Below, piece after piece: positions 1,769-17,782 of a DNA stretch of 17,782 bases. Positions within the stretch are counted from its first letter, which is position 1, and the number at the start of each line of letters is the position of its first letter. The notes under the pieces are model-generated. The model ran no database searches, was not told the origin of the DNA, and saw nothing but the letters and a program-made list of their open reading frames with translations. The position numbers were made by a program, and so were the translations under genes. The DNA is from an uncultured Oscillospiraceae bacterium (GTDB lineage Bacteria > Bacillota > Clostridia > Oscillospirales > Oscillospiraceae): the NCBI GenBank assembly GCA_934643765.1, contig CAKUCT010000014.1, positions 1 to 17,782 of the forward strand, written 5' to 3'.

Positions 1769-1771
1769 ATG

Positions 1772-2687: not shown

Positions 2688-2694
2688 AGAAATT

Positions 2695-2740: not shown

Positions 2741-2760
2741 ATCGATAACAGCAGACTTTC

Positions 2761-3012: not shown

Positions 3013-3014
3013 AG

Positions 3015-3084: not shown

Positions 3085-3149
3085 ACACTATCTTCCTTTC
3101 CGAAATCGCGACGCTTATTATTCATTTATAGTGTCGTGAAAGTGAAACA

Positions 3150-3185
3150 AAAATCGGTTGAAATCGTATGATTTCAACCGATTTT
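3150..3185. terminator. Bidirectional rho-independent terminator.
   Basis: Perfect 16-bp stem AAAATCGGTTGAAATC (3150-3165) pairs with GATTTCAACCGATTTT (3170-3185) around a GTAT loop. The A-run and T-run arms give a U-tract on both strands. Confidence 0.65.
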
Positions 3186-3269
3186 CTTTATATTTCGTGT
3201 CAAATCCATTCCTATTGTCCTGCGTAATCCTACCGGCGAGAAAATTTTATTCATGCTCGTTGATCTCGC

Positions 3270-3930
3270 TTCTTGTTTGTCGTCCAGCAAGCCCAAATGC
3301 AGAACATTGCCGCGCCCAGCCATCCAGTCGCTTTCCGACTCGGACAGGCTGATGGCGCTGGTAGTCTGGCTGTGATACTTGCGCGTCAACGCGCCGTTAT
3401 AGTCAAATTCATTGCGCTGAATCTCGCGCTGCGCGCGGTTCAGCTCCGACAGAAGATCCGGCCGCTGCTTGGAGACGCCGAAGTATATAGTCGCTTGAGC
3501 CGATATCCACCAACGGCACATAGCCGTAGGCAATGGAAAGGTCAGGCGTTACAATCGTCTCCACCTCACCCGCGTCCAGCGCGTCCATCAGCTCATTGTA
3601 GCCGTGAAGTGGAACAACCTCTGCCGAAATTTCATTTTCCGCCAACCACTGCACCAAAAGATCCAGCTGATAGCTGTCGGCCGTCACGCCGATGCGGCAG
3701 CCGTCAAAATCGCTCAGATCGCCGAACAGGTCAATCTCGCCGCTGACCAGCATATCGTAGCATTCCTTGAACGAGCCGTGAACGTATTCATACTCCCAGC
3801 CGGTCACAGAGGAAATCTTCTGGAGGTATTCATAGCCCGCGCCGGTCTTATACCCGCCCTCATACTCTTCTTCATATGTGATTGCGTTCACGTAGCCCAC
3901 GCGGACAGCCTTGGCCGCCTGCTGGCCATG
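3270..3930 (-). pseudogene. Decayed N-terminal fragment of a sensor protein with tandem periplasmic solute-binding (SBP_bac_3-like) domains.
   Basis: Homology is split across two frames. ORF 3409..3900 gives VRVGYVNAITYEEEYEGGYKTGAGYEYLQKIS...SFKECYDMLVSGEIDLFGDLS. ORF 3174..3533 gives YFGVSKQRPDLLSELNRAQREIQ...LSESESDWMAGRGNVLHLGLLDD. There is an in-frame stop at 3931-3933 upstream of the domain and no signal peptide in frame. An apparent internal deletion follows GDLS. No kinase or output domain follows. Confidence 0.6.
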
Positions 3931-4142
3931 TCATTGTATCAAACACAATCGTACCGGAAAGCAGGCCATTTTCCGCCGGCAGATATTGTTTATTGTACTA
4001 TTTTACGACGGAAATTGCCAGACTTTTCTTGACATTTTCTTAACATCCCGTGGTTCTTTTTTGTAATTACGCCCGTTTTTGTATGAATATGGGATTATTG
4101 ATGTAAAATCAAGAAATTCCGGAAAAGCTCTGCGGACGCAAG

Positions 4143-4173
4143 AAGGGCACTTCCCAAAAAAGGAAGTGCCCTT
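4143..4173 (-). terminator. Hairpin 14 nt downstream of the nucleoside hydrolase stop; probable end of the long operon.
   Basis: A 12-bp stem AAGGGCACTTCC (4143-4154) pairs with GGAAGTGCCCTT (4162-4173). The T-tract is good on the plus strand (GTTTTGA) but weak on the minus strand. Confidence 0.45.
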
Positions 4174-4187
4174 GTTTTGATGACTGA

Positions 4188-5159
4188 TTATCCGACGGGG
4201 TAAGCGTAGGTCTGATCCATGAACGTGGTGATGAGCTCGGCAGCCGCCTTCTCGCCTTCCACATCCATGCAGAACGTTGTAAACGGCGCGTCAAACGGCT
4301 CTTCGCGCACGTCTGTCACGATCATACCGCGGCAGTACGTGCCGCCGCATTCCACGCGCGCGCGCATCTTGCGCATCATCACAAGACTCGGGTCCACTGC
4401 AACCAGCACGGCCAGCGGATCGTGCACCGGGCAGTCGTCGATGCAGTTATTCTGCACGCGGTTGAAGCGGTAATAGAAGTGCAGCGCCTGCTTGATGTAC
4501 TCACAGATGGGCCGGTTTTCTTCTGCGCAATAGTGATCGAGCGCCTGGATATGGCGAAGGGTCAGGCGCGTTTTCATCGTAACGTCCAGACCGATCATCG
4601 TCAGATCAAAGCCCGCCATCATGACCATATCTGCAGCTTCGGGGTCGCCGATGATATTGGCCTCCGAAACGGGCGAAGCGTTGCCGCTCACCTTCACAGT
4701 GCCGCCCATGGTCACAACATTTTTCAGAAGCTTCGGAAGGTTCGGCTCCAGCTGCAGCGCCTGCGCAAGATTCGTCATACGCCCAAGCGTCACCAACGTC
4801 AGCTCGCCCGGGTTTTCCCGCGCCATGCGCACAATAAACTCGTGGCCCGGCTCCTTGACCGGCTTCTGGCCGACAGCCGGGAGCTGCGCCTCGCCGACGC
4901 CGTTTTTGCCGTGGATGTGCGGCACCGGGCCGTCCCATTCGCCATTGAGCGGGCGGCCGGCGCCGATTGCAACCGGTACTTCATAGCCGGGCTTTGCCAG
5001 ATGCACCAGACGGATGCTGTTTTCCGCCGCCTGCTCCGCGGTTGTATTTCCGAAGCCGGTGATAATGCCCATAACGCGCACATCGGGCCGCTTCAGGGCG
5101 AACAGAATCGCAATGGAATCATCAATGCCGGTATCGCAGTCGATCAGCATTTTTATCAT
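4188..5159 (-). CDS. Nucleoside hydrolase (IUNH / Rih family N-ribohydrolase).
   Basis: N-terminal aspartate cluster LIDCDTGIDDSIAI. Other family motifs: VTLGRMTNLA, NASPVSEANIIGDPEAA and VHDPLAV. AAGGAG lies 9 nt upstream of the ATG. Confidence 0.9.
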   Translation of the reverse strand: MIKMLIDCDTGIDDSIAILFALKRPDVRVMGIITGFGNTTAEQAAENSIRLVHLAKPGYEVPVAIGAGRPLNGEWDGPVPHIHGKNGVGEAQLPAVGQKPVKEPGHEFIVRMARENPGELTLVTLGRMTNLAQALQLEPNLPKLLKNVVTMGGTVKVSGNASPVSEANIIGDPEAADMVMMAGFDLTMIGLDVTMKTRLTLRHIQALDHYCAEENRPICEYIKQALHFYYRFNRVQNNCIDDCPVHDPLAVLVAVDPSLVMMRKMRARVECGGTYCRGMIVTDVREEPFDAPFTTFCMDVEGEKAAAELITTFMDQTYAYPVG

Positions 5160-5197
5160 TTCTATAAACTCCTTTTTCTATGTAACGTTTTCCCGTA

Positions 5198-6124
5198 TCA
5201 GTTCAGGCGCACAGCCTTTGCCTTCTGCTGCTTGCAGATCGAGAAAATGGTCAGACCCAGAATCGTCGCCACATACGGCAGCATATCAATGAACTGCGAG
5301 GGAATTGCCAGCAGCTGCAGCGTATTGGACAGGCTGTCAAAGAATGCGAAGACCATGGACGAGAGGAACACGCCGAGCGGTGTGGACTGTCCCATCGCCG
5401 CCGCGGCCAGCGCGATAAAGCCGCGGCCGGCTACCATGTCGCGCGTAAACATGCCGATATAGCCCATCGACATATACATGCCGCCAAGGCCCGTCAGAAT
5501 GCCGCAAAGCAAAATCGCAATGTAGCGCGTCTTGTTGACGTTGACGCCGACCGAGGACGCCGCCGCCGGATTTTCGCCCACCGAACGACTCCGAAGGCCG
5601 AGCGGCGTCTTATACAGGATGAACCAGACCACAAAAATGGCAAGGAACGCCAGATAGGTAATCAGGTTGTGGCCTGAGATGATTTTGCCGAGCACCGGAA
5701 TGTCTTCAATCAGCGGAATGTGCACTGTCGGGAACGAGAAGCTCTTCAGAGACGAGCTCGTGCCCTTTTCGCTGGTGATGGTATAAAGCAGCATGACTGT
5801 TGCACCGGCGGCAAAGGTGTTGATGGCCGTGCCGCAGAGGACGGCGTTCGCCTTCAGATTCAGATGGAAATAGGCAAACACAAGGCTGACCAGCAGTGCA
5901 ACGCCAAGCCCTCCGACCAGGCCCCAGAACAGGCTTCCGCCGAACGCGCCGCCGAGCACACCGCCCAGCGCCGCCAGAAGCATCATGCCCTCCAGGCCGA
6001 GATTTACAACGCCTGCCTGATTGCAGAGGCTGCCGCCCAGCGCGGGAAGCAGGATCGGCGTTACAACGCGGATCCACATATAGACAAATTCAACACTGAA
6101 AATGTTTTTTAAGATAATGGACAT
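5198..6124 (-). CDS. ABC transporter permease (BPD_transp_2 type, nucleoside/simple-sugar class), second permease.
   Basis: Polytopic membrane protein. Start trimmed to MSIILKN (ATG rc of 6122-6124) behind GAGGAGGAAGCGT. The basic 21-aa extension in the ORF track would overlap the upstream gene. Confidence 0.85.
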   Translation of the reverse strand: MSIILKNIFSVEFVYMWIRVVTPILLPALGGSLCNQAGVVNLGLEGMMLLAALGGVLGGAFGGSLFWGLVGGLGVALLVSLVFAYFHLNLKANAVLCGTAINTFAAGATVMLLYTITSEKGTSSSLKSFSFPTVHIPLIEDIPVLGKIISGHNLITYLAFLAIFVVWFILYKTPLGLRSRSVGENPAAASSVGVNVNKTRYIAILLCGILTGLGGMYMSMGYIGMFTRDMVAGRGFIALAAAAMGQSTPLGVFLSSMVFAFFDSLSNTLQLLAIPSQFIDMLPYVATILGLTIFSICKQQKAKAVRLN

Positions 6125-6137
6125 ACGCTTCCTCCTC

Positions 6138-7217
6138 TCACGGCTTCGGCTGCGCTGCAGCCTGCTCTTTTTCTGCCGCCTCGACAATCAGCTTCTGACG
6201 CCAACGCTGCAGCAGCGCGCCGGAGGCAATCAGCAGCATAATGACCGCCTGAATGATCTGGGCGACCTCGCTGCTCACGTCACTGTTCATTGACATGATG
6301 TTTGCGCCGGTGTTGATGTAGGCGATAAAGCAGGCGCTCAGCGGAACCATCAGAGGATTGTCCTTGGCCAGAAGCGCAACGACAATGCCGGTCCAGCCGT
6401 ATCCGGGGCTGGCCGTCCATTTGAAGCGGTTGTACATGCCGAGCAGCTCCACGCCTCCGCCAAGACCGGCGATCGCACCCGCGATCATCTGCGCGCCGAC
6501 CATGATGCCCGTCTCATTCAGGCCGACATAATGGGCAAACGAGGCGTTTTCGCCCGTCAGCCGCAGCCGGTAGCCAAAGCGCGAACGGTAGATGAGGACC
6601 CAGCACAGAACGCTGCAGACCACGGCGAAGACAACGCCGAGATGAATGTTTGTGCCCGGAATGATTTTCGGAATGATACTTGTTTCCGTCAGCTTCCAGG
6701 AGCAAAGAGACGAGTTGCCGAGCTCACGGAAGTGATAGGTCACAAGATAGATTGCAAAGAACTGGATGACATAGTTCAGCATGATCGACGTGACGACTTC
6801 GCTGACATTCCAGAGCTTTTTGAGAAACGCCGGAACCGCCGCAGCCAGCGCGCCGGCTGCCGCCGCGACCAGCAGTGCCACAACCATATGCACGCCCGCC
6901 GGAAGCGTGATTGCCAGGGATACCACCATCGCCGCCGAGGTTCCAAGGAAGAAGGAGCCTTCGGAAATCATGGAGAACTGGCCAGCGCCGAAGATCAGCA
7001 TCACAGCCAGCGCCGTAAAAATCAGCGGGCACGCACCCTCAACGATGTTACCGATGCGGCGCATGGACAAAAACGGGCCGATGAAGAAATTATACAGTGC
7101 GTTTCCGGGCTCATCGCTCACCAAAAAAATGATGACTGCAATCATGGCAAGCGCGATGAGCAGGATCATCAGCAGCTTGACGCTGTCCACCAGCAAATTG
7201 ATTTTTTTATTGCTCAT
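6138..7217 (-). CDS. ABC transporter permease (BPD_transp_2 type), first permease.
   Basis: Polytopic membrane protein. Its ATG overlaps the ATPase stop codon (ATGA, 7214-7217). Confidence 0.85.
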   Translation of the reverse strand: MSNKKINLLVDSVKLLMILLIALAMIAVIIFLVSDEPGNALYNFFIGPFLSMRRIGNIVEGACPLIFTALAVMLIFGAGQFSMISEGSFFLGTSAAMVVSLAITLPAGVHMVVALLVAAAAGALAAAVPAFLKKLWNVSEVVTSIMLNYVIQFFAIYLVTYHFRELGNSSLCSWKLTETSIIPKIIPGTNIHLGVVFAVVCSVLCWVLIYRSRFGYRLRLTGENASFAHYVGLNETGIMVGAQMIAGAIAGLGGGVELLGMYNRFKWTASPGYGWTGIVVALLAKDNPLMVPLSACFIAYINTGANIMSMNSDVSSEVAQIIQAVIMLLIASGALLQRWRQKLIVEAAEKEQAAAQPKP

Positions 7218-8770
7218 TTTGCTACCTCCGCGATCTGCTCATCTGTCTGGCGCTCAATGCCAAGCATGTAACGGCCCAGCATCTCCTCTGTCACAGCCTT
7301 TGTGTCCGGGAAATAAGCGGCAATCTTGCCGCCGCACAGCACAATCAGACGATCCGCCAGACCAAGCAGCTCGTTGAGATCTGACGAAACCAGCATGACA
7401 CATTTGCCGCTGTCGCGCAGCTTCAGAAGCTCCTTGCGGATAAACTCCGTCGCGCCGACGTCAACGCCGCGCGTCGGCTGGTCGGCAATGACAATCTCGG
7501 GCGTGCTGGACAGCTCTCGCGCCAGAACGACCTTCTGAATGTTGCCGCCGGAGAGGCTTGAAATGCTCACATCCGGAGACTTGCAGACAACCTGATACTG
7601 CGAAACCATCTCTCTGCCGTATTCGCGGATATTCTTTCTGCGAAGAAGGCCGAGCTTGCTGACAAAGCGTGCATCGTCACTCTTGTCGGCCAGCGCATTT
7701 TCCGTGATGGAAAGCTGGCCCGCCATGCCGACGCTCATACGGTCCTCTGGAATATAGCTGACCTTCAGCTTGCGCACCTGCCGGGGGCCCATCCCCTTGA
7801 TGTCCTTGCCCAACAGCTCCACCGCGCCGCCTTCAAAGCCGCGGTTGCCGCTGAGAATTTCAACCAACTCGCCCTGGCCGTTGCCCTCGACGCCGGCAAT
7901 GCCGAACACCTCCGCGCGCTTGGCGCAGAAGCTCACGCCGTCGAGCCGCTTCTGGCCCAGGATGTTGCGCGCCGTCAGTTCCTTCACGGAAAGGACGGTT
8001 TCCCCCTGCTTGGCAGGCGTCTTGTCGATCTGCAGCACAACGTCGCGGCCAACCATCAGCCGGGAGATCTGCGCCTCGTCGACGTCTGCGATGTTGTAAA
8101 CGCCCATGGTCTTGCCGCGCCGGATGACCGTAATCCGGTCGCACAGCGCGCGCACTTCGTTGAGTTTATGTGAAATGAAGATGATCGTGTAGCCGTCATC
8201 TCGCAATACTTTCAGTTCCTGGAACAATTCCTGCGTCTCCTGCGGCGTCAGAACGGCCGTCGGTTCGTCAAGAATCAGAATCTTTGCGCCGTGGAGCAGC
8301 GCCTTGAGGATCTCCACCTTTTGCTTCTGTCCGACCGAAAGGTCACGGATCTTTGCCCGCGGCGGGACATTCAGATTATACTTTTCAGAAATTTCAACGA
8401 CGCGCTGCTCTGCGAGCTTCTGGTCGATGACAATTCCCTTCCTCGGCTCCAGACCGAGAATCATATTTTCGACCACAGACAGCGACGGCACAAGCATGAA
8501 GTGCTGGTGCACCATGCCGATTCCGAGCTCGATGGCCTTTGTCGGTGAGGTGATCTGCACCTTTTCTCCGTTGATATAGATTTCTCCGCGCGTCGGCTGC
8601 TCTTCGCCGAAGAGGAGCTTCATCAATGTCGATTTACCGGCGCCGTTTTCACCGGATAACGCATGGATTTCTCCTTGTCTGACGCAGAAATCAATCCCAT
8701 TATTTGCGACAACACCATTGGAATAGACTTTTGTGATATGCTCCATGCGCAGTGCTTCCAACTCTTGCAT
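7214..8770 (-). CDS. ABC transporter ATP-binding protein with duplicated ATPase domains (nucleoside/sugar importer type).
   Basis: First half: Walker A GENGAGKST, signature LSVGQKQKVEI, Walker B ILILDEPT. Second half: GVEGNGQGEL, LSGGNIQKVVL, IVIADQPTRGVD. GGAGGAG ribosome-binding site upstream. Confidence 0.9.
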   Translation of the reverse strand: MQELEALRMEHITKVYSNGVVANNGIDFCVRQGEIHALSGENGAGKSTLMKLLFGEEQPTRGEIYINGEKVQITSPTKAIELGIGMVHQHFMLVPSLSVVENMILGLEPRKGIVIDQKLAEQRVVEISEKYNLNVPPRAKIRDLSVGQKQKVEILKALLHGAKILILDEPTAVLTPQETQELFQELKVLRDDGYTIIFISHKLNEVRALCDRITVIRRGKTMGVYNIADVDEAQISRLMVGRDVVLQIDKTPAKQGETVLSVKELTARNILGQKRLDGVSFCAKRAEVFGIAGVEGNGQGELVEILSGNRGFEGGAVELLGKDIKGMGPRQVRKLKVSYIPEDRMSVGMAGQLSITENALADKSDDARFVSKLGLLRRKNIREYGREMVSQYQVVCKSPDVSISSLSGGNIQKVVLARELSSTPEIVIADQPTRGVDVGATEFIRKELLKLRDSGKCVMLVSSDLNELLGLADRLIVLCGGKIAAYFPDTKAVTEEMLGRYMLGIERQTDEQIAEVAK

Positions 8771-8799
8771 GTACGCTCCTCCAATCAGTTTTTAGATAA

Positions 8800-8829
8800 G
8801 AACAGGGGCAACCTAAGCTGCCCCTGTTC
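8800..8829 (-). other. Intercistronic hairpin between the binding-protein gene and the ATPase gene.
   Basis: An 11-bp stem GAACAGGGGCA (8800-8810) pairs with TGCCCCTGTTC (8819-8829). No U-tract follows on the minus strand. Confidence 0.4.
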
Positions 8830-8849
8830 GGGAATCTTATGAAATGCAA

Positions 8850-10049
8850 TCAGGGCTTGACGGATTCACGCAGAGCTGCCACTTCTGCGGTTTCCATGGT
8901 GTAAGCCGTGTCGACCGTGATCTCGCCGGAGACGACCTTGGATACGATGTCCTCAAGCTGTGCGCGGGTCTCTTCGGTAGTCAGAGCCTGGAAGTTGTCG
9001 TTGTCAGCCAGACCGACAGCGCCCTCTGCAAGGCCCATGGAGTAGGTCTCACCGGTGGACTTGCTGCCGTCCCATAGGCCGGTAGCAGCCAGGACGATGG
9101 CGTCGCCCATCTTCTTCAGCGAAGAGGAAACAACGTTTGCAACCAGCTCCGGATCAGTGTCAACGAGCATGGTGTAAAGGTCCGTGTCGCAGCCGATGAG
9201 CATCTTGTTGCAGTTCTTGGAAGCCGTCACAGCGCCGACAATACTCTGGGAAGCCGGAGCGTAGACAACCTGCGCGCCCTGGTTGTAGACCTGGGTGGTC
9301 ATTTCAAGGCAGGTAGCAACGTCTTCGAACGAGCCGACATAGGACGTGATGACCTTGATGGAGTCGTCGATATACTGGATGCCCTCGATGTAGCCAACGA
9401 GGAAGTCATTGATGGCGGCACTGTCCATGGAGCCGACAAAGCCGGCGATCTTCTGCTCGGGATCGATGTTGCCGGCAGCATTGTCGATTTCAAGCGCGGC
9501 CAGGCAGCCTGCCATAAAGGCGGTCTCATAGGCGCGGAAGGTGATGCCCATCATGTTCGGAGAAGAAATTTCACCGTCGATGAACAGATACTGCTGATCG
9601 GGATAGTCGGCTGCAACCTCTTCGAACACTTCCTGGACAGACCAGGTGCAAGCGACGATCAGGTCCCAGTTCTGCTCGGAAACATCACGGAAATAGGTCT
9701 CGTAAGCGGTTTCGTCACGGCCCATCTCGATGATCTTGATCTCGCAGCCGTAATCGCTGCCCAGACGCTCAATGCCTTCAGCGCAGGAATCATAGAAGCC
9801 CTTGTCGCCCAGGTTGCCGTTGACCAGGAAAACAACACGCTTGCCTTCCGAGGTGCTGGAAGCCGTTTCTGCGGGCTGCTCTTCCTCGGTGGTGGAGTCA
9901 GCTTCGGTTTCTTCTGCCGGCTCCGTCGTCTCAGTTGTCTGCGTGTCCTGTGCTGTCTGGCTATCGGTGCTGGCCGGCTTGGATGCGCAGGCCGTAAGCA
10001 CGCTCAGCAGCATCAGCATAGCCAACAGAAGCGATACAAACTTTTTCAT
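8850..10049 (-). CDS. BMP-family (PnrA/Med-like) lipoprotein; substrate-binding component of the nucleoside ABC importer.
   Basis: Signal peptide plus lipobox LTAC. A ~45-aa acidic T/E/S-rich linker follows. Bmp-family body: VVFLVNGNLGDKGFYDS...GFVGSMDSAAINDFLVGYIEGIQY. TAGGAGG ribosome-binding site upstream. Confidence 0.9.
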   Translation of the reverse strand: MKKFVSLLLAMLMLLSVLTACASKPASTDSQTAQDTQTTETTEPAEETEADSTTEEEQPAETASSTSEGKRVVFLVNGNLGDKGFYDSCAEGIERLGSDYGCEIKIIEMGRDETAYETYFRDVSEQNWDLIVACTWSVQEVFEEVAADYPDQQYLFIDGEISSPNMMGITFRAYETAFMAGCLAALEIDNAAGNIDPEQKIAGFVGSMDSAAINDFLVGYIEGIQYIDDSIKVITSYVGSFEDVATCLEMTTQVYNQGAQVVYAPASQSIVGAVTASKNCNKMLIGCDTDLYTMLVDTDPELVANVVSSSLKKMGDAIVLAATGLWDGSKSTGETYSMGLAEGAVGLADNDNFQALTTEETRAQLEDIVSKVVSGEITVDTAYTMETAEVAALRESVKP

Positions 10050-10107
10050 GTGTAGAGTACCTCCTAAAAATCTTTATATCATCCAGCCGCGCTGGAAAAT
10101 ATACGTC

Positions 10108-10947
10108 TCAGATCAGAACGATATCCGTAAAGCCATTGTTTGCGGCAATCCGGTAATAGCCCTGCATTTCCTCCGCCGTGGGCGAACGGAACTGCGCCTG
10201 ATACGGCGGGCGGACACCAAATTTCCGGTAAGCAATGATTTTATAGCGGATAGAGCGCGTTGTCAAATAGGGCCGGAGCAGCGCCGTGATTTTTTCAACC
10301 GTCTGGCTGTTCGGAAGAACGTCCGGCACAATGACCGTCCGGATTTCTTCGAGCTTTCCGGTCTTGGCAAGATACACTGCGTTTTCCAGCACCATGTCGT
10401 TGCCGCAGCCGGTCAGCGCCTCATGTGCCTTCGTGTCAAACGCCTTGACATCCAGCATCACGCCGTCGCAGACCTCCATGAGCTCCGGGTCAGACGCATA
10501 GTCGTAGCTGCCGTTGGAATCCATGAGCGCGGACAGGCCGTGTTCTTTTGCCATACGGAACAGCTCCAGCACAAAATCGCGCTGCAGCGAGCACTCGCCG
10601 CCGGAGACGGTAATACCGCGGATAAACGGCACATCCGGCAGAATCTGCTCCATCACCTGCTGCGCGCTCATAACCGTCGTCCGCGGGGAGGCAAGATTCG
10701 GACAGATGTGGATGCACGTATCACAGCTGCAGCAAAGCGTCTCGTTCCAGGAAACTTTGCCGTCCTCGATAGACAGCGCACCTGCGGGACATTTCGCGAC
10801 GCACGCGCCGCAATTTGTGCAGCAGTGAATGGTCTCCGGATTGTGGCAGTACGAACAGGCGAAATTGCACCCCTGCAGGAACACCACCGCCCGGTTGCCG
10901 GGTCCGTCGACCACACTGCTGTGTAAAATCCGATTGACGATCGCCAT
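10108..10947 (-). CDS. yjjW: Glycyl-radical enzyme activating enzyme (radical SAM), YjjW family.
   Basis: CNFACSYCHNPE is the CX3CX2C radical-SAM cluster motif. Two ferredoxin-like motifs, CTNCGACVAKCP and CCSCDTCIHICP, plus GGEC. The ATG overlaps the upstream GRE stop codon (TAATG). Confidence 0.85.
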   Translation of the reverse strand: MAIVNRILHSSVVDGPGNRAVVFLQGCNFACSYCHNPETIHCCTNCGACVAKCPAGALSIEDGKVSWNETLCCSCDTCIHICPNLASPRTTVMSAQQVMEQILPDVPFIRGITVSGGECSLQRDFVLELFRMAKEHGLSALMDSNGSYDYASDPELMEVCDGVMLDVKAFDTKAHEALTGCGNDMVLENAVYLAKTGKLEEIRTVIVPDVLPNSQTVEKITALLRPYLTTRSIRYKIIAYRKFGVRPPYQAQFRSPTAEEMQGYYRIAANNGFTDIVLI

Positions 10948-12458
10948 TACAGATGCCGCACCTTCCGATCGTAAACCTTGCCGTTTTTCACCTCGCCGTA
11001 GCCCCAGAAGGCGTTTGCCTGCGGGACGGCCTGGCCGGCGTCGAGCTTTGCGATATCCGACTTCTTGACAAGATAGCCCGTGATGCGGATGACATCGCTG
11101 TCAGAGCAGTAGGTGGAGAAATACCGCATGCCCTGCGCAAAGCTTCCTTTGATCAGATCCACGATTGCCGCGGGATTGCGCTTTGCCGTCTCGTCGAACG
11201 GGAAAATATCGCCCACGCCGGAGGTGAAGTACGGATGCATCTTCGCGCAGTGGCGCAGATGCTCATAGAGCGGCAGCTCCGAGCCGATGGCGATACGCAC
11301 GCCGGGGCTGATGCCGATATCGGAGTCAATGCCGACCTGCGCGTGCAGGGAGAAATGATGGTCCGTGCAGGCGCAGTATTTGCTGGTGAACGCGGCGTTG
11401 CATTCCTGCAGCTTTTCAAGAATTTTCTTTGCCAGCGCATCGGCCGCCTCGCTGTAGCCGTAGCGGTCGTCTTTTCCTTCCTTCTGCATCAGAAGGTTCA
11501 CGCATTCATTCATGCCGACCACGCCGAGCATGGCCGTGAACCGGTCGAGCTGCAAAAAGCCCTCCTGCACCAGGAAGTTGGAGCGGAAGAACTGGCTCTT
11601 TTCCACCAGGAACTCCACCTTCTGCTCCATATATTCACAAAGCGTCGCCACCGCGTGCGGCAGAAGATCATTGATAAAGTGTTCGCTGTCTTTTGCTCTG
11701 GCCGCCAGACGGCTCAACACCACGCGTGAAAGCGTGAACGAGCCGCCGCCGATCGGCAGCGCGTTGTAGCAGCTGGCCACACCATACGGTGTGTCATACA
11801 GCTTGCTATATTCCTTGTGATTTGCAAAGCTCGGCTTTGCGCAGGCCAGCGCGCACTGCACGCACTCCTGCGCAAAATCGTCCGGCGTAATGTCCGGATC
11901 ATACAGAAGCGTAATCGACGGGATGGCATTTTTCATCTGCGTCTGCAGCTTTACAATCATCCGTCCGGCGCGCGTGGCCTCCGGGCCGAGATTCATATGG
12001 CAGTAGGAATCGGGAATCGTGCGGTCCAGGAAGACCAGGAAGCTCCGCATCAGACGCTCTGCGTCCGGATCGTCCATAAACGGCTCGAGCATTTTATCCA
12101 CGGAGCCAAGATACACCGGGTAGTGCGTGACCGACGGGATGTGCCGGTAAAACATCTCCAGCGTCTGGATGGCGTCAAACAGGTTATCCGGCGGGTCGAG
12201 CCGCAAAAACTTGCAGCCCTCGCGCAGCAGCTTTTCATAATCAGGCAGCGTGTAGCGCGGATTATACGTCACATTGCCCTCCGACATCGTGCACAGGCAA
12301 CCAGCCTCATTCAGCTCCCGAAACGCCGCGGTCGTATCAAAAAACTCCACGTAATTCAGCGGTACAGCCGAGAGATTCATTGCCTGCTGTTCATTCGTCA
12401 GCGCGGTATCGGTGAGGATGCTCTCCACATCGCGCTTCAGACTCGTAATGTTCAGCAT
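10947..12458 (-). CDS. yjjI: YjjI-family glycyl-radical enzyme (short GRE, DUF3029-type), substrate unknown.
   Basis: 503 aa from the ATG at 12458 (GGGGG 8 nt upstream; the TTG at 12491 in the ORF track is less likely). The glycyl-radical fingerprint DVIRITGYLV lies near the C-terminus. The gene is immediately and translationally coupled to a GRE activase. Length and arrangement match the E. coli YjjI/YjjW pair. Confidence 0.8.
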   Translation of the reverse strand: MLNITSLKRDVESILTDTALTNEQQAMNLSAVPLNYVEFFDTTAAFRELNEAGCLCTMSEGNVTYNPRYTLPDYEKLLREGCKFLRLDPPDNLFDAIQTLEMFYRHIPSVTHYPVYLGSVDKMLEPFMDDPDAERLMRSFLVFLDRTIPDSYCHMNLGPEATRAGRMIVKLQTQMKNAIPSITLLYDPDITPDDFAQECVQCALACAKPSFANHKEYSKLYDTPYGVASCYNALPIGGGSFTLSRVVLSRLAARAKDSEHFINDLLPHAVATLCEYMEQKVEFLVEKSQFFRSNFLVQEGFLQLDRFTAMLGVVGMNECVNLLMQKEGKDDRYGYSEAADALAKKILEKLQECNAAFTSKYCACTDHHFSLHAQVGIDSDIGISPGVRIAIGSELPLYEHLRHCAKMHPYFTSGVGDIFPFDETAKRNPAAIVDLIKGSFAQGMRYFSTYCSDSDVIRITGYLVKKSDIAKLDAGQAVPQANAFWGYGEVKNGKVYDRKVRHL

Positions 12459-12502: not shown

Positions 12503-12532
12503 TTGACATTGCGGCTTTTGCAGAAATATGAT
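12503..12532 (+). promoter_or_regulatory. Candidate sigma-70 promoter for the Crp/Fnr-family regulator gene.
   Basis: TTGACA (12503-12508), an 18-nt spacer, then TATGAT (12527-12532). It overlaps the divergent yjjI promoter back to back. Confidence 0.4.
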
Positions 12533-12569
12533 AGCATTAGAGCGCACATTAAAAAATGCCATTTGTCAC
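12528..12569 (-). promoter_or_regulatory. Promoter of the yjjI operon: extended -10 plus an upstream conserved motif in place of a -35 box.
   Basis: Minus strand reads GTGACAAATGGCAT (rc of 12556-12569), 19 nt, then TGCTATCAT (rc of 12528-12536). The -35 position reads TTTTTT. The same motif and spacing recur at 14781-14822. Confidence 0.5.
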
Positions 12570-12588: not shown

Positions 12589-13293
12589 ATGTCTGATACT
12601 TTGATACACGTCCTGCTCTATATTCTCTCCGAAGATTATCAGTATCCGCTCCCCGCCGCCTGCGCAAAAATGCTTCAGGATGCCCATGTTCCGGTTCTGC
12701 ACGCGGCAAAGGGCTCGTCCCTTACCGTCAGCGGCGCTCCGGTTTCCGGCGTCTATGTGCTGCTCGACGGCTCCTGCAGCGCCGAAAAGATCACACCCTT
12801 CGGCCGCCAGCTCAGCGCCGCGGCCTCCAATCCTGTCCAGATCTTCGGCCTGCTCGAATCCCTCTCCCCTGCCTACACCTGCTATGTTACCACGCAGCGC
12901 TGCCTGTCCGACTGCGCATACCTCTGCATTCCGAGCGAAGAGTATCTGTACATGCTCCGGCACTCCAACGTGCTGTGCATGCTGAATCTGCAGTTTCTCA
13001 GCCTCCATGTGCTGCGTATCATGGATGAAAACGACCTTCTCCTGCTGCATAACATCCGCGACCGGATCCTGCTCTATCTCTATCACAGCGGAGACGGCGC
13101 GCACTTTCCGTTCCGGCTTCCTGTCAAACGCGAAGCCATGGCGCAGAATCTCAACATCAGCCTCCGCACGCTTTTCCGCCAGCTCGATGCGCTGGAGGAA
13201 GAGGGCATCATCTGCATTGAGCACGGCAAAATTATTCTGACCCAGGCGCAGCACACGCACCTGCGCCGGATTTTGGCCGATTTTGTATCATAA
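12589..13293 (+). CDS. Crp/Fnr-family transcriptional regulator.
   Basis: N-terminal cNMP-binding-like beta-barrel region (PVSGVYVLLDGSCSAEKITPFGR). C-terminal HTH REAMAQNLNISLRTLFRQLDALEEEGIICIEHGKI. I prefer the start at MSDTLIHV (ATG 12589); the ATG at 12556 is possible but lies inside the shared regulatory motif. Confidence 0.75.
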   Translation: MSDTLIHVLLYILSEDYQYPLPAACAKMLQDAHVPVLHAAKGSSLTVSGAPVSGVYVLLDGSCSAEKITPFGRQLSAAASNPVQIFGLLESLSPAYTCYVTTQRCLSDCAYLCIPSEEYLYMLRHSNVLCMLNLQFLSLHVLRIMDENDLLLLHNIRDRILLYLYHSGDGAHFPFRLPVKREAMAQNLNISLRTLFRQLDALEEEGIICIEHGKIILTQAQHTHLRRILADFVS

Positions 13294-13303
13294 AAACGAA
13301 TCG

Positions 13304-13339
13304 CCGCCGCAGATGCTTTCAGCATCTGCGGCGGTTTTT
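13304..13339. terminator. Bidirectional terminator between the convergent regulator and amidohydrolase genes.
   Basis: A 13-bp stem CCGCCGCAGATGC (13304-13316) pairs with GCATCTGCGGCGG (13322-13334), followed by TTTTT. An A-rich tract lies on the other side. Confidence 0.75.
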
Positions 13340-13342: not shown

Positions 13343-14734
13343 TTATGCTTCAAATGCCGGGAAATAGGACACTTTGCTGCGCAGCACGCGCGTGCACGTC
13401 CTCTCCGCTGCCCGCGCAAGCTCCTGCTCGTCCACGCCCGTGAGCGTTCCGTCCCGGTAAACAACCTCTCCGTTGATCATCGTCATCCACACCCGGTCCG
13501 TCACGCCGCAGCGCGCCAGAAGCCCCTGCGGATCATGCAGCGTTCCGCTGTACTCCAGTTTGGAAATGTCCACGAGGAACAGATCCGCGCCCTTTCCGCA
13601 TTCCAGGCTGCCAAGATCGGTCCGGCCAAGCGTCTTCGCACCGTTGATTGTCGCGACCCGCAGCATCTGCGCAGCCGATGTGCACCCGCCGCGCTGCTTG
13701 CTGAAGTATGCCTGCATGAGATACGCCATACGCAGCGAGTCGAGAAGGTTCGAGCTGTCGTTCGTCGCTGAGCCGTCGCAGCCCAGGCTGACCGTCACGC
13801 CCTTTTTGAGCATATCCCCAATGTTCAGAATCGGGAAACCGCCGAGAACCGCGGGCCCCGGGCAATGCGACACGCCGCTCCCCGCCTGGCCAATGCGCGC
13901 ATACTCCTCCGGCGTCCACTCCCAGCCATGCGCATACCAGACATCCGGGCCAATGAACCCGATCTTTTCACACCAGTCGAGCGAACGCATGCCATATCTG
14001 GCCTGAATGATATCGTTTTCGCCCTCGCCCAGATGCGTGTGCATATATACGCCGTATTTTCTCGCCATTTTGACCGTCTCTACAAACGTGTCTTCATAGC
14101 AGTTCATCGGCTGGCAGGGCGCCATCACAATCTGGTGCATGGAAAACGGCGAGGCATCCTGGTATTTTCCGATCAGCCGCTCGCAGTCGGCAAGGAACTC
14201 GTCCGTCGTCTCAAGCATATTTTCCGGCATCGTGCTGCCCTTTTCCCGCGGCAACGTGTTGGTGCCGCGGCCGGCGTGATAGCGGATGCCGATCTGCGCC
14301 GCGGCGTCCATCTGCCGGTCCACCAGGAACTTGCCCGCCGCCTTTGTGTAGCAATACTGATGGTCAAAGGCCGTTGTGCAGCCGTGCTTGACCAGATCTG
14401 CAAACGCCGTCAGGGCCGAGTAGTAAATCACGTCCTCATCCACGAGCTGGAACACGTGGTAAATCTTATCCAGCCACTCCGGCACCGTCATCTGCGGATA
14501 ATCGATGCTTGTGAGGTTCCGGACAAACGTCTGGAAAAAATGGTGATGCGTGTTGACCAGACCCGGATACACAAACTTATCCGTCGCGTCAATGATCTCG
14601 CAGCCCTCCGGCACCGGAAGGTTCTTTCCGATTTTGACAATCTGCGGTCCATCAACGAGCAGGTCCGTATTCCAGTAAATATGATCTTCAGCATCGCAGG
14701 TGACAATCGCGCGGGCATTTCGAATCAGCTTCAT
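13343..14734 (-). CDS. Amidohydrolase-superfamily deaminase (8-oxoguanine deaminase / guanine-cytosine deaminase-like, COG0402 type).
   Basis: Metal-binding HxH motif in GLVNTHHHFFQTF. Other motifs: YMHTHLGE, YAHGW, SLGCDGSATND. Start trimmed to MKLIRNARAIV (ATG rc of 14732-14734) behind GAAAGGAG. Confidence 0.85.
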   Translation of the reverse strand: MKLIRNARAIVTCDAEDHIYWNTDLLVDGPQIVKIGKNLPVPEGCEIIDATDKFVYPGLVNTHHHFFQTFVRNLTSIDYPQMTVPEWLDKIYHVFQLVDEDVIYYSALTAFADLVKHGCTTAFDHQYCYTKAAGKFLVDRQMDAAAQIGIRYHAGRGTNTLPREKGSTMPENMLETTDEFLADCERLIGKYQDASPFSMHQIVMAPCQPMNCYEDTFVETVKMARKYGVYMHTHLGEGENDIIQARYGMRSLDWCEKIGFIGPDVWYAHGWEWTPEEYARIGQAGSGVSHCPGPAVLGGFPILNIGDMLKKGVTVSLGCDGSATNDSSNLLDSLRMAYLMQAYFSKQRGGCTSAAQMLRVATINGAKTLGRTDLGSLECGKGADLFLVDISKLEYSGTLHDPQGLLARCGVTDRVWMTMINGEVVYRDGTLTGVDEQELARAAERTCTRVLRSKVSYFPAFEA

Positions 14735-14780
14735 GGCAGTTTCTCCTTTCAAGCGGCTGTTTCTCCGATATTTTGAATAT

Positions 14781-14822
14781 AGTATAGCAAACCCGCCCTC
14801 AAAAAAACATGCCATCTGTCCG
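14781..14822 (-). promoter_or_regulatory. Promoter of the amidohydrolase gene with the same motif and spacing as the yjjI operon promoter.
   Basis: Minus strand reads CGGACAGATGGCAT (rc of 14809-14822), 19 nt, then TGCTATACT (rc of 14781-14789). A partial third copy, ATGCCAT flanked by an A-run, sits at 14881-14887. Confidence 0.5.
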
Positions 14823-15000
14823 ATTTTGCGTGTGCGTCACATTTTCGTCCCGGGCCGCCTGCCCAGGGTGCGCGTCAAAAATGCCATGCATTCGGCAGTC
14901 TTCTGATTGCGTTTGCAAAGGAAATTTTGACGGCCATCGGCGGGGTCTAATACGTCTCACGGTGAGACGCAATTTGAAAACGGAAGGGATGAGATTCTGC

Positions 15001-15029
15001 TTGCAAACATATCATATTCCTGATATACT
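15001..15029 (+). promoter_or_regulatory. Sigma-70 promoter of the toxin-antitoxin operon.
   Basis: TTGCAA (15001-15006), a 17-nt spacer, then TATACT (15024-15029), about 30 nt upstream of the antitoxin ATG. Confidence 0.5.
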
Positions 15030-15057
15030 ATGGATAGAAAACACAGGAGGTGGTTGT

Positions 15058-15336
15058 ATGCAAATCAGAGCATCCACGGCATTGCGCAACGAATATCTTC
15101 AGATTTCACAGCTGGCAAAGGTATCCGGCGAGCCGATCTATATTACAAACAAAGGCGAAGCCGACATTGTGATCCAAAGTATCGAAGCGTATGAACAGCG
15201 CGAAAAGATGCTGGCACACCGGGCAAGCGTCCTGGAAGCAGAACTGGATCGTCTGAGTGGTGCGCCGACATATTCTCCGGAACAGGTACGCGGCAGAATG
15301 AAGGAGATCTTTGATGCAGCAAGAGTATCAGATTAA
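15058..15336 (+). CDS. Type II antitoxin, Phd/YefM family.
   Basis: MQIRASTALRNEYLQISQLAKVSGEPIYITNKGEADIVIQSIEAYEQRE is the typical Phd/YefM N-terminal domain. AGGAGG lies 8 nt upstream of the ATG at 15058. The 83-aa N-terminal extension in the ORF track has no support. Confidence 0.8.
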   Translation: MQIRASTALRNEYLQISQLAKVSGEPIYITNKGEADIVIQSIEAYEQREKMLAHRASVLEAELDRLSGAPTYSPEQVRGRMKEIFDAARVSD

Positions 15337-15631
15337 ATATCTGCGCGCTGCCATGCGCGATTTGGAAAGTATTGCGCAGCTTTATCTCGGCTTGGCCGGT
15401 GCGGATTCCGCTGAAAAATTCATTGGCGAGATTCTGCATACCGTAGACCTGTTACGGACATTCCCATATTCCGGCGCGCTGCACCCGGATATGGTGCTGG
15501 CGGAACGGGAGTTCCGTAAGGTCGTTTGCCGTGACTATGTATGTGTCTACAAGGTCATTGACAGCGAAAAGACGGTCTATATCTACCGCATCGTGAACGG
15601 CAAGACAGACTATCCTCAGCTCTTGTACTAA
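15314..15631 (+). CDS. parE: Type II toxin, ParE/RelE superfamily.
   Basis: 105 aa with a family-typical pattern (IKYLRAAMRDLESIAQLY...LRTFPYSG...FRKVVCRDYVCVYKV...VYIYRIVNGKTDY). AAGGAG lies 7 nt upstream. The gene overlaps the antitoxin 3' end by 23 nt. Confidence 0.8.
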   Translation: MQQEYQIKYLRAAMRDLESIAQLYLGLAGADSAEKFIGEILHTVDLLRTFPYSGALHPDMVLAEREFRKVVCRDYVCVYKVIDSEKTVYIYRIVNGKTDYPQLLY

Positions 15632-15974: not shown

Positions 15975-16778
15975 ATGAATCTTCTTGTTGTGGACGATGA
16001 GCGCCTTGCATTGCAGCTTTTGACTGATACGATTCAAAAGGTGCTCCCGGACGCAACGATCTGCGCATTTACAAAGCCCTCCGAAGCGCTGCGCTTTGCG
16101 CAGGAAACAACCTGTGAGATTGCGTTTCTTGATATTCAGATGCGCTCCATGACCGGCTTGGAGCTTGCGCGGCGGCTGAAAAATATGCAGCCGAATATCA
16201 ATATTATCTTTGTCACCGGTTACGATGAATATGCCGGCTATGCCATGCGGATGCACGCCAGCGGTTATCTGATGAAGCCTGTCACGGAAGAAAAACTCCT
16301 ATTGGAGCTTGCCGAGCTGCGCCATCCGATTACACTTGAGCAGCCGCAGGCTGTGCTGCGGGTACAATGCTTTGGAAATTTCGATGTATTTACTGCGCAT
16401 GGCGAGCTTGTCCACTTTGAACGGGCCAAGGCAAAGGAACTCTTTGCTTATCTTGTATCCAAGCGCGGAGGCTCCTGCAATATCCGTTCGCTTGCCGGAA
16501 TCCTTTTTGAGGACACGCCTTACGACATCAAGCAATCGACCTATATGCGGACGATTCTTTCCAGTCTGACAAAATCGCTCAGAGCGGTTGGTGCAGAAGC
16601 AGTCCTGAAAAAGAATTATAACGAGGTTGCAATCGACACGCAGCTGCTTGACTGCGACTACTACCGCTTCCTGCGCGGTGAGGTATCTGCTGTCAATCGG
16701 TATCAGGGCGAGTTTATGGCACAATACTCATGGGCAGAATTTGTGACCGGCTATATTGAACAGAAAACGGTAAAATAA
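15975..16778 (+). CDS. Two-component response regulator: REC domain plus a C-terminal winged-helix (SARP/OmpR-like) DNA-binding domain.
   Basis: REC motifs LLVVDDE, FLDIQM (phospho-acceptor Asp), FVTGY and YLMKP. C-terminal region LRVQCFGNFDVF...AKELFAYLVSKRGGSCNIRSLAGILFED. GGAGGG lies 7 nt upstream. Confidence 0.85.
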   Translation: MNLLVVDDERLALQLLTDTIQKVLPDATICAFTKPSEALRFAQETTCEIAFLDIQMRSMTGLELARRLKNMQPNINIIFVTGYDEYAGYAMRMHASGYLMKPVTEEKLLLELAELRHPITLEQPQAVLRVQCFGNFDVFTAHGELVHFERAKAKELFAYLVSKRGGSCNIRSLAGILFEDTPYDIKQSTYMRTILSSLTKSLRAVGAEAVLKKNYNEVAIDTQLLDCDYYRFLRGEVSAVNRYQGEFMAQYSWAEFVTGYIEQKTVK

Positions 16779-16819: not shown

Positions 16820-16911
16820 ATGAATCTATGTTGAGTTTTTACAATTTATGTGAATCTTGTTGCGCTTTTGTAGCGCCTGCTTATTATCATACACGATTGG
16901 AGGCGTCTGAA

Positions 16912-17580
16912 ATGACCGATACACTGAAATATATCAATCTCGCAATGCAAAGCTGGGGGCTTTTATTCTGCCTGCTGGCGGCTGCGATTTTGCTGATTGC
17001 GGCGCACATCGACCGCCGCATGAAGCATTACTTCCTCGCCATCTTTTCGCTGCTGTTTCTCGACCTGCTGTCGAATATGGGCGGGCTCCTTCTGCGCGGG
17101 CGGACAGACGCATTCGGCGCGTTTTTGCTCCGCTTCTCTAACTTTACCGAGTATTTCTGGGGCGACGCGCTGACGCTGGTTCTGACGCTGTATCTGCTCT
17201 ATCTCATCGACCATGGAAAACAGGCCGCAACAAAAATCTGGCGCATTTCCGCGTGGACTCTGTTTGCTGTGGCGGTCACGCTTCTGGTCATTTCGCAGTT
17301 TACCGGCATTTTCTATACCGTTGGTGCAGATGGCATTTACCACTGCGGACCGCTGTTCTGGCTATCGCAGGTGATTGCCATTGCTTCTCTGGTGCTGGAC
17401 ATTGTGCTGATTATCCGCTACCGGACGGTTCTGAGCCGCGCGGAGCGCATCAGCTTCTGCGTCTATGTCTGCGTGCCAATCGTGGCAATTTTTCTTCAAC
17501 TGTTCTTCTACGGCGTGTATTTCCTGCTGCTGGCGTCTACGCTTGCGGCGGTGTTCATGCTGGGTGCGATTATGCTGCGC
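16912..17580 (+). pseudogene. N-terminal 7-TM sensor module (histidine-kinase or GGDEF-type input domain), truncated; no cytoplasmic catalytic domain follows.
   Basis: Start at MTDTLKY (ATG 16912, GGAGG upstream). About seven hydrophobic helices run through ...LAAVFMLGAIML. Beyond that the frame reads PDRAPPTPCNSCSLCLAR and overlaps a convergent gene that ends at 17570. The junction coordinate is approximate. Confidence 0.5.
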
Positions 17581-17782
17581 CTGCCAGATCGTGCGCCACC
17601 AACGCCGTGTAATAGCTGTTCATTGTGCTTGGCGCGTTGAACAGCGCAGCCAGCAGATATTGCCGGATATTCCGAATCCGCGTTGTGTTTTGCTTCAGGC
17701 AGTCCATGACGAAACGGATATGCTCGCTGTTCAGCTTCAGCAGCTTTGACCGCACGACCTCGGCTGGGTAATCGCTGCCTGC
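17570..17782 (-). CDS. C-terminal 70 codons of a conserved Firmicutes mobile-element (ICE/conjugative-transposon-associated) protein; the gene enters from the right edge.
   Basis: The reading frame is open from the window edge: AGSDYPAEVVRSKLLKLNSEHIRFVMDCLKQNTTRIRNIRQYLLAALFNAPSTMNSYYTALVAHDL... From memory, the motif Y(L/M)LxALFNAP-T(M/I)-SYY...V-HD recurs in replication/DnaD-like accessory proteins of clostridial integrative elements. The family name is not certain. Confidence 0.45.
   Translation of the reverse strand, partial: AGSDYPAEVVRSKLLKLNSEHIRFVMDCLKQNTTRIRNIRQYLLAALFNAPSTMNSYYTALVAHDLAGAA

Follow-up and report, generated by a model that had tools for sequence, protein, structure and literature searches.

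A YjjI/YjjW glycyl-radical enzyme pair linked to a predicted nucleoside-uptake operon in an uncultured Oscillospiraceae bacterium

The gene pair and its family

The window examined here is a stretch of 17,782 nucleotides from an uncultured Oscillospiraceae bacterium (contig CAKUCT010000014.1 of assembly GCA_934643765.1). On its minus strand lie two adjacent genes, the first for a glycyl-radical enzyme (GRE) and the second for its radical S-adenosylmethionine (SAM) activase. An earlier note, made by reading the letters, had described a short GRE with a translationally coupled, three-cluster activase, and had proposed kinship with the class III ribonucleotide reductase NrdD. Does this pair belong to a known family, and what might it do? 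Its landmarks are as follows.

10947-12458, minus: yjjI-type GRE, 503 aa; ATG at 12458, stop at 10949-10947
11763-11774, minus: Cys finger-loop motif S229-C230-Y231-N232 of the GRE, with candidate thiyl-radical residue Cys230 (from alignments and an AlphaFold2 model)
11073-11087, minus: glycyl-radical loop R458-I-T-G461-Y462 of the GRE (read from the sequence)
10945-10949, minus: TAATG stop/start overlap of GRE and activase genes (CATTA on the plus strand)
10108-10947, minus: yjjW-type radical-SAM GRE activase, 279 aa
10846-10869, minus: radical-SAM motif C27-x3-C31-x2-C34 of the activase (read from the sequence)
10702-10821, minus: ferredoxin-like insert of the activase, with two CX2CX2CX3C-P motifs (from sequence and Pfam)
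10789-10821, minus: first four-Cys motif of the insert, C43-x2-C46-x2-C49-x3-C53-P
10702-10734, minus: second four-Cys motif of the insert, C72-x2-C75-x2-C78-x3-C82-P

The features that the earlier note had pointed out are all present: the R-I-T-G-Y fingerprint (R458-Y462), the CX3CX2C motif and the two ferredoxin-like Cys motifs of the activase, and the TAATG junction, in which base 10947 belongs both to the stop TAA and to the start ATG. A GGGGG stands 7 nt 5' of the GRE's ATG. An alternative in-frame TTG at 12491 would yield a 514-aa GRE; homologues and the family hidden Markov models begin at the ATG at 12458.

Profile searches placed both proteins in curated families. The GRE matched Pfam PF11230 (YjjI-like, formerly DUF3029) with 662 bits (E = 5.5e-199) over profile positions 1-485 of 485, and NCBIfam TIGR04040 (YjjI family glycine radical enzyme) with 636.2 bits (cut-off 498.3) over positions 2-497 of 497. 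The activase matched NCBIfam TIGR04041 (YjjW family) with 364.6 bits (cut-off 250.2). Judged by the Pfam YjjI-like and NCBIfam YjjW scores, these are real genes and no chance open reading frames (ORFs), and we regard the identity of the pair as GRE and activase as nearly certain. Escherichia coli K-12 YjjI aligned with the GRE over its full length at 38% identity (E = 2e-122). The region is orthologous to YjjI/YjjW of E. coli; a curated family has been rediscovered, and no new kind of enzyme. Close homologues named “YjjI family glycine radical enzyme” occur in Oscillospiraceae, Eubacteriales, Lachnospiraceae, Treponema and others, and at least 596 GTDB species representatives match YjjI/YjjW. 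An identical GRE protein is already present in public metagenome data, and a 94%-identical locus with unchanged gene order lies in an uncultured Oscillospiraceae genome. A literature search for a characterisation of YjjI, YjjW, DUF3029 or PF11230 returned omics mentions only.

The E. coli pair (b4380/b4379) shares with the pair in the window a GRE of ~500-516 aa, the S-C-Y-N and R-x-T-G-Y motifs, an overlapping downstream activase gene and adjoining genes of nucleoside catabolism, which in E. coli are deoCABD. The two differ in arrangement: the E. coli pair is solitary, opposite deoC, and FNR-activated, whereas the pair in the window stands at the head of a predicted operon that also encodes a Bmp-type ATP-binding cassette (ABC) importer and a nucleoside hydrolase, with a Crp/Fnr-like regulator of its own.

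The earlier note had also set the ~503-aa GRE against larger characterised GREs. The size contrast is correct: the solved NrdD chains matched by Foldseek in the PDB comprise 534-715 residues, and GREs of the pyruvate formate-lyase (PFL) type 764-869. It is, however, no peculiarity of this gene. All full-length family representatives are 490-532 aa long (450 matches in 1.84 billion cluster representatives), and with such a uniform length of ~500 aa the short format defines the YjjI family, which the earlier note had itself named among those to search.

For a wider view, 80 related loci, one per GTDB species representative, were surveyed together with the window (81 loci); all of their ORFs were clustered, and antisense clusters were discarded. 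A YjjW activase was found in 77 of the 81. In most of these 77 loci, yjjW starts -17 to +7 nt from the yjjI stop codon, and the two E. coli genes overlap according to their annotation.

Fold and relationship to NrdD and PFL-type enzymes

An AlphaFold2 model of the GRE, built with 32 homologues, had a pLDDT of 92.6 and a pTM of 0.91. In this model DSSP assigned 5 + 5 barrel strands and two beta-hairpin fingers (residues 225-235 and 456-465). Cys230 sits at the tip of one hairpin (strands E225-228/E232-235), and Gly461 at the tip of the other (E456-459/E462-465). The model matches the ten-stranded barrels of GREs and ribonucleotide reductases (RNRs): Foldseek gave a probability of 1.0 against NrdD and against PFL-type GREs. 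Alignment with C419 and G734 of PflB would place Cys230 close to Gly461.

Which residues does the family keep? Two YjjI alignments were compared, one of 32 close homologues and one of 25 diverse homologues that included E. coli YjjI. S229, C230 and N232 are invariant in both, as are R458 and G461. Cys230, the residue of the SCYNAL string to which the earlier note had drawn attention, is the sole Cys conserved in the family, a result that is independent of any alignment with NrdD. Three arginines (R68, R245 and R388) are likewise invariant in YjjI and hint at an anionic, possibly phosphorylated, substrate. Further invariant residues are E60, Y69, D121, T191, E299, H372, Q374 and D380.

The proposed kinship with NrdD concerned the segment GVASCYNALPIGGGSFTLSRVVLSRLA (GRE residues 226-252), which contains S-C230-Y-N and had been likened to the Cys/finger-loop region of NrdD. 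Pfam, Foldseek and hhalign all support the kinship. The Pfam NRDD profile matched residues 191-361 with 41.9 bits (cut-off 26.2), whereas the PFL-like profile gave 16.6 bits, under its cut-off of 24.3. Foldseek ranks 1-26 in the PDB were all NrdD structures (E = 1.7e-17 to 1.3e-13; TM-score on the query 0.59-0.72), from Prevotella copri, phage T4, Streptococcus thermophilus and Thermotoga maritima; PFL-type matches ranged from E = 2e-13 to 1e-10, and the best of them (2.1e-13) ranked below NrdD. With hhalign, the profile of the 25 diverse YjjI sequences aligned to six NrdD sequences over 395 columns (97% probability, E = 7.9e-11) and to PflB/PflD/YbiW at 94% (E = 1.4e-7). In the former alignment, A-S-C230-Y-N of YjjI falls on M-G-C384-R-S of E. 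coli NrdD, so that the thiyl Cys columns coincide; in the latter, C230 falls on C419 of PflB and the Gly loop on the RVxGY loop of PflB/PflD/YbiW. The six-sequence NrdD alignment was used in place of the single E. coli NrdD sequence, against which the YjjI profile reached 22% probability with the Cys three positions off. The GRE's Gly loop is of the GYL type, and its RITGYLV string is identical in P. copri NrdD. Among PDB sequences, neither the single protein nor the family profile retrieved a solved relative; NrdD came no closer than E = 0.1. Three measures thus agree, by a moderate margin, in supporting a closer relationship of the GRE to NrdD, its best match in fold and profile, than to other GREs. 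None of the three outcomes that the earlier note had named as refuting its interpretation was observed. In 2011 a paper already mentioned that E. coli YjjI is assigned an NrdD-type domain (PMC3228777).

The differences from NrdD are as instructive as the likenesses. YjjI is 100-240 residues shorter and is without ~140 N-terminal residues; for NrdD residues 1-143, the ATP cone/allosteric region, the YjjI alignment offers no counterpart. In the hhalign alignment, N174-C175 of NrdD is paired with the invariant R68-Y69 of YjjI, and M382 with A228. NrdD C175, which corresponds to T4 C79, is the Cys that donates the reducing hydrogen. Nor does the YjjI alignment contain a counterpart of the NrdD Zn site (C644, C647, C662 and C665, invariant in NrdD); just 17 residues separate the end of the alignment from Gly461. 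The NCBIfam NrdD equivalogs gave 16.4 bits (TIGR02487, cut-off 326) and 17.2 bits (NF006127, cut-off 545), and E. coli possesses a separate nrdDG besides yjjI-yjjW. Since the reducing Cys, the Met, the Zn-Cys4 site and the N-terminal domains are absent, the YjjI reaction should not be ribonucleotide reduction of the NrdD type; as far as sequence can tell, YjjI is no RNR of any known type.

An identity as PFL was rejected as well: YjjI has Ser229-Cys230 at the position of Cys418-Cys419 of PflB, and its PFL-like score is sub-threshold. With the PFL-type 1,2-eliminases (the glycerol and propanediol dehydratases, HypD, CutC, and PflD, a 1,5-anhydro-sugar-6-phosphate dehydratase) YjjI has a single catalytic Cys in common, which makes a redox-neutral radical mechanism plausible for it. 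Those enzymes differ in having ~750-870 residues and a G-C-V-E loop, against ~500 aa and C-Y-N in YjjI. In GRE eliminases, a catalytic Glu stands two positions after the Cys. The Cys-x-Glu (G-C-V-E) motif of GRE dehydratases was not found in YjjI, which has C230-Y231-N232 in its place, with N232 invariant; the general base may lie elsewhere, for example at the invariant E299 or E60.

The activase resembles those of the eliminases in its CX3CX2C motif followed by two ferredoxin-like motifs. Its best model outside the YjjW family was PFLE_PFLC (TIGR02494), with 155.3 bits, just under the cut-off of 174.35; NrdG models scored 44-70 bits against cut-offs of 126-131. By these profile scores, the activase is YjjW, a sister family to the PFLE_PFLC ferredoxin-insert activases. 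The higher PflC-type score means that an NrdD-like enzyme is paired here with a PFL-type activase, of the PflC/ferredoxin-insert type, in contrast to the NrdG-type activase of NrdD. Pfam Fer4_9, Fer4_10 and Fer4_7 matched activase residues 42-84, and the insert is predicted to bind two auxiliary [4Fe-4S] clusters through C43/46/49/53 and C72/75/78/82. A three-cluster activase of this kind is no rarity: among GRE activases the ferredoxin-insert type is common. Within YjjW itself, all 79 homologues keep the three radical-SAM Cys residues, and the eight auxiliary ones are present in 65-66 of the 79. Twelve short orthologues (237-277 aa) lack the whole insert, among them those of surveyed loci L040, L045, L050, L058, L060, L062, L063, L074, L076, L079 and L021, and the YjjW of locus L061 retains one four-Cys motif. 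From these alignments, the three-cluster form is common in the YjjW family and not universal, and the auxiliary clusters appear dispensable in some lineages.

Operon, genomic neighbourhoods and regulation

The genes and signals around the pair are listed below.

8850-10049, minus: Bmp/PnrA-type lipoprotein, the binding protein of an ABC importer (Pfam Bmp, 180 bits)
7214-8770, minus: ABC transporter ATPase with duplicated ATP-binding domains (Pfam ABC_tran, twice)
6138-7217, minus: first BPD_transp_2 permease (Pfam)
~5198-6187, minus: second BPD_transp_2 permease (Pfam; start uncertain)
4188-5159, minus: inosine-uridine-preferring-type nucleoside hydrolase, the last gene of the operon (PF01156, 283.9 bits)
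4143-4173: hairpin with a 12-bp stem past the hydrolase stop codon (terminator-like scan, consensus match only)
12528-12533, minus: -10-like hexamer TATCAT of the predicted yjjI promoter (fixed spacing in 9 of 9 loci)
12556-12569: candidate operator GTGACAAATGGCAT, a TGACA-N2-TGTCA palindrome with one half-site mismatch
12589-13293, plus: divergent Crp/Fnr-family regulator (Pfam cNMP_binding and HTH_Crp_2; ORF call from 12556)
13343-14815, minus: amidohydrolase related to 8-oxoguanine/purine deaminases (NCBIfam, PDB)

The pair forms the first two genes of a predicted seven-gene operon, yjjI-yjjW-bmp-ABC ATPase-permease-permease-nucleoside hydrolase, of which the hairpin at 4143-4173 is a candidate end. 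The hydrolase is RihA/UriH-like in NCBIfam, under the cut-offs of those models. The amidohydrolase scored 385 bits against the NCBIfam 8-oxoguanine deaminase model, under its cut-off of 532, and matched PDB entries 7ww2/3hpa with E = 1.9e-86. The nearest solved relatives of the Bmp protein are BmpD (6shu), BmpA (9q1u), 4pev and PnrA/TmpC (2fqw), with E = 3.6e-28 to 3.3e-23; Borrelia BmpD/BmpA and Treponema PnrA/TmpC are binders of purine nucleosides. The importer, known here from its genes, thus resembles the Bmp/PnrA nucleoside ABC importers, to which its binding protein is nearest, and has their duplicated ATPase and two permeases. The difference lies in the GRE pair in, or heading, the transporter operon in the window, an arrangement that to our knowledge has not been described before.

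How widespread is this association? Nucleoside genes were present in 42 of the 81 loci. By gene, the counts were 41 for the ABC ATPase, 33 for the Bmp binding protein (at a median distance of 169 bp from yjjI/yjjW), 29 for the permeases, 20 for a Crp-like regulator, 19 for a phosphorylase of the PNP/UDP family, 14 for cytidine deaminase, ten each for the nucleoside hydrolase and the amidohydrolase, seven each for DeoC and adenosine deaminase, and six for phosphopentomutase. In ~20 of the 81, mostly from Lachnospiraceae, the order is Bmp-YjjI-YjjW-ATPase-permease-permease, which puts the pair inside the transporter operon; upstream there is often a phosphorylase gene, and on the downstream side Cdd, DeoC, Ada or DeoB. 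The E. coli yjjW-yjjI genes adjoin deoCABD, in divergent orientation. Among distant YjjI members, one has a Bmp transporter ~6 kb off, and another (38% identity) lies in a locus, L084 (positions 1-11721), with IU_nuc_hydro, ADP_ribosyl_GH, PfkB, PNP_UDP, sulfatase, YjjI, YjjW, MFS and Bmp genes. The genes of the L084 cluster all lie on one strand and make up a different, richer nucleoside-type set, which might narrow the substrate; its sulfatase belongs to the sulfatase/phosphodiesterase family. Neighbouring genes in the 39 loci devoid of nucleoside genes were annotated in search of a second theme, and none emerged: they include a SPOUT methyltransferase, an ABC exporter, a Na/Pi cotransporter, a phosphoesterase, a Met-tRNA ligase and an M19 dipeptidase. 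Nucleoside uptake and cleavage is the sole recurrent functional theme across the 81 loci and the distant members, and the nucleoside link is a strong one.

The intergenic region between yjjI and the regulator gene was compared across loci. A perfect TGACA-N2-TGTCA palindrome with A/T-rich flanks occurs in all eight other loci in which the regulator is immediately divergent from yjjI (L002, L003, L004, L011, L015, L017, L050 and L079), and in none of the 59 upstream regions without the regulator cluster. An inverted-repeat scan of the yjjI upstream region of the window gave no match because the operator there has one mismatch; it was the cross-locus comparison that revealed it. The -10-like hexamer follows at equal spacing in all nine loci, reading TATCAT, TACCAT, TAGAAT, TACAAT, TAAAAT or TATACT in the other eight. 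This spacing would centre the operator near -41.5, the geometry of a class II Crp/Fnr-activated promoter, and we take palindrome and hexamer together as a candidate operator and class-II-type promoter for an uncharacterised regulator subfamily. Since the operator and the first ATG of the called ORF overlap, ATG 12589 is the likelier start of the regulator gene. The regulator probably drives the operon as an activator through TGACA-N2-TGTCA. An N-terminal Cys cluster of the FNR type was not found in its sequence, and for that reason its signal is probably a small ligand rather than oxygen. In E. coli, yjjI is listed among the operons directly activated by FNR (PMC3688515), and the yjjI/deoC intergenic region is bound by CRP (PMC4287617); yjjI of Yersinia intermedia rises 4.3-fold anaerobically (PMC3792023).

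Two further signals lie close by. A near-consensus sigma-70-like promoter (TTGACA-17-TAAAAT, 11 of 12 matches; 10238-10266, minus) stands inside the 3' end of the activase gene, ~190 nt 5' of bmp, and could express the transporter genes apart from the radical-enzyme pair. Between the convergent regulator and amidohydrolase genes, a GC-rich hairpin of 14-15 bp (13303-13335) was called as a terminator on both strands.

Possible reaction, alternatives and other features

What reaction might such a pair carry out? In the scheme that we propose, YjjW would cleave SAM reductively at its C27/C31/C34 cluster, with the two auxiliary clusters presumably serving as an electron relay. The resulting 5'-deoxyadenosyl radical would take a hydrogen from Gly461, and the stored glycyl radical would be handed to Cys230. 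The Cys230 thiyl radical would then abstract a hydrogen from a substrate derived from a Bmp-imported nucleoside, most likely from its ribosyl part; that substrate could be the nucleoside itself, ribose, or ribose 1- or 5-phosphate. The likeliest chemistry would be a redox-neutral radical elimination, for example with water lost from the ribose diol or with departure of a leaving group, like the first RNR half-reaction or the reactions of GRE diol dehydratases. With one Cys and no evident reductant, redox-neutral elimination is the most economical reading. We consider it reasonably probable, on the whole, that this is a YjjI/YjjW pair in a nucleoside operon that performs a single-Cys radical reaction on a nucleoside-derived substrate. 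On the nucleoside origin of the substrate, taken by itself, we lean only slightly toward yes; redox-neutral elimination as the chemistry is tentative and on balance doubtful.

Several observations weigh against this proposal. In 39 of the 81 loci, yjjI-yjjW stands among unrelated, non-recurrent housekeeping neighbours, and one distant YjjI member has no nucleoside genes nearby. Bmp-family ligands need not be nucleosides: more remotely, the Bmp protein also matches the riboflavin-binding TpN38(b) and an atrazine-binding protein, and the nearest named Bmp model in NCBIfam is that of a putative B6 transporter, far under its cut-off. The hydrolases and phosphorylases encoded nearby can already cleave ordinary nucleosides, which leaves the need for radical chemistry unexplained. 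As to the enzyme itself, the proximity of Cys230 and Gly461 is drawn from alignment, and the placement of Tyr69 at the NrdD reducing-Cys position comes from a single profile alignment. Neither biochemical data nor a solved structure was found for any family member. Finally, a 2011 co-expression study ties E. coli yjjI to nitrate/nitrite-responsive genes, not to nucleosides (PMC3228777).

These points bear on the alternatives. Should the substrate have nothing to do with a ribosyl group, being instead derived from a nucleobase or some other small molecule carried by a Bmp protein, or should the pair have a part in nitrate/nitrite respiration, as has been suggested for E. coli yjjI, then the roughly half of the loci that are without nucleoside genes, the variety of Bmp-family ligands, the purine-deaminase-like amidohydrolases in 10 of 81 loci and the co-expression of E. 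coli yjjI with nar genes (PMC3228777) would all find a place. We give this possibility some weight while judging it unlikely, as nucleoside uptake and cleavage is the only theme that recurs and the remaining loci have housekeeping genes of no common theme around the pair. Less probable still is a reductase at the level of nucleosides or sugar phosphates, which would reduce ribonucleosides or ribose phosphate to the 2-deoxy form at the expense of formate or some other external reductant. The product would enter the DeoB/DeoC route, which leads to glyceraldehyde-3-phosphate and acetaldehyde. The NrdD-like core with its thiyl Cys, the invariant Tyr69 at the position of the NrdD hydrogen-donor Cys, the recurrence of DeoC and phosphopentomutase downstream in Lachnospiraceae loci and the deoCABD genes beside E. 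coli yjjI are consistent with it. It is opposed by the want of a second conserved Cys and of the Met that thiosulfuranyl chemistry, as in formate-dependent NrdD, would call for; moreover, just 7 of 81 loci have DeoC, which does not occur in the window, and the neighbourhoods point to no reductant.

The two remaining alternatives can be set aside with more assurance. That YjjI is a small but genuine class III RNR, making deoxyribonucleotides for DNA synthesis, is very improbable in spite of NrdD being the closest match in fold and profile and of the RITGYLV Gly loop shared with the P. copri enzyme. The NrdD equivalogs score 16-17 bits against cut-offs of 326-545; nothing in YjjI corresponds to the reducing Cys (C175 in E. 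coli), to Met382, to the Zn-Cys4 site or to the N-terminal ATP-cone/specificity region, and one Cys alone is conserved; the activase is PflC-like and not NrdG-like; E. coli has a separate nrdDG; and the operon context of the pair is uptake and catabolism. Least credible of all is a 2-keto-acid lyase of the PFL type, as older annotations (PflB-like or formate acetyltransferase) would have it. There is distant kinship to PFL-type GREs in the hhalign comparison (94%, E = 1.4e-7), and EcoGene describes the Haemophilus orthologue as a pflB homologue. PFL, however, requires the adjacent Cys418-Cys419, where YjjI has Ser229-Cys230; the Pfam PFL-like score stays at 16.6 bits (below 24.3); the protein is 250 residues shorter than PFL; and neither formate channel nor acetyl-CoA genes were among the neighbours in the surveyed loci.

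Returning to a radical reaction on a nucleoside-derived substrate, one may go a step further and picture YjjI as a living minimal NrdD, a barrel with a single Cys that performs only the first, redox-neutral RNR half-reaction on free nucleosides or ribose phosphates: abstraction of the 3'-hydrogen, then loss of the 2'-hydroxyl or of the base. We think this specific version unlikely. Were it true, it would mean a new radical route for pentose and nucleoside catabolism in gut anaerobes and enterobacteria, and a natural model for ribonucleotide reduction evolving from, or decaying into, a simple radical dehydratase. In E. coli and in many gut Clostridia, YjjI/YjjW is one of the few GRE systems that still lack an assigned substrate. 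The field is narrowed by the retention of the NrdD thiyl Cys with loss of the NrdD parts for reduction and allostery, and by the link of the pair to nucleoside uptake and cleavage operons in dozens of species, one clade having a dedicated regulator with a defined operator. That leaves few candidate substrates, all open to test: nucleosides, ribose, and ribose 1- or 5-phosphate. A reaction directed at ribose, should that reading prove right, would give anaerobic nucleoside catabolism in the gut an additional radical step and have a bearing on RNR evolution. New here are the residue-level contrast with NrdD, the transporter-operon linkage and the prediction of regulator and operator.

The rest of the window holds several features apart from the operon. 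Near its left end, a gene at 156-1115 (minus) encodes a 319-aa protein with Viral_Rep (HUH endonuclease) and RNA_helicase (superfamily 3) domains, the architecture of Rep proteins of small plasmids and of the CRESS-DNA-virus-like kind. With RepA of NC_003527, a 4.5-kb plasmid of Bifidobacterium pseudocatenulatum, it shares 30% identity. Small helix-turn-helix and ribbon-helix-helix genes (1220-2125) and a DUF2726 gene (2103-2687) adjoin it, which suggests that the Rep-like gene and its neighbours are an integrated small-plasmid-like element. A short ORF at 3409-3900 (minus) has a weak SBP_bac_3 match and is possibly a gene fragment. Just past the amidohydrolase gene, at 14809-15631 (plus), lies a type II toxin-antitoxin module of a Phd/YefM antitoxin and a ParE toxin; the antitoxin ORF call has a long N-terminal extension that is probably spurious. 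A response-regulator gene follows at 15975-16778 (plus), and after it, at 16828-17640, the gene for a multi-pass membrane protein with no family match.

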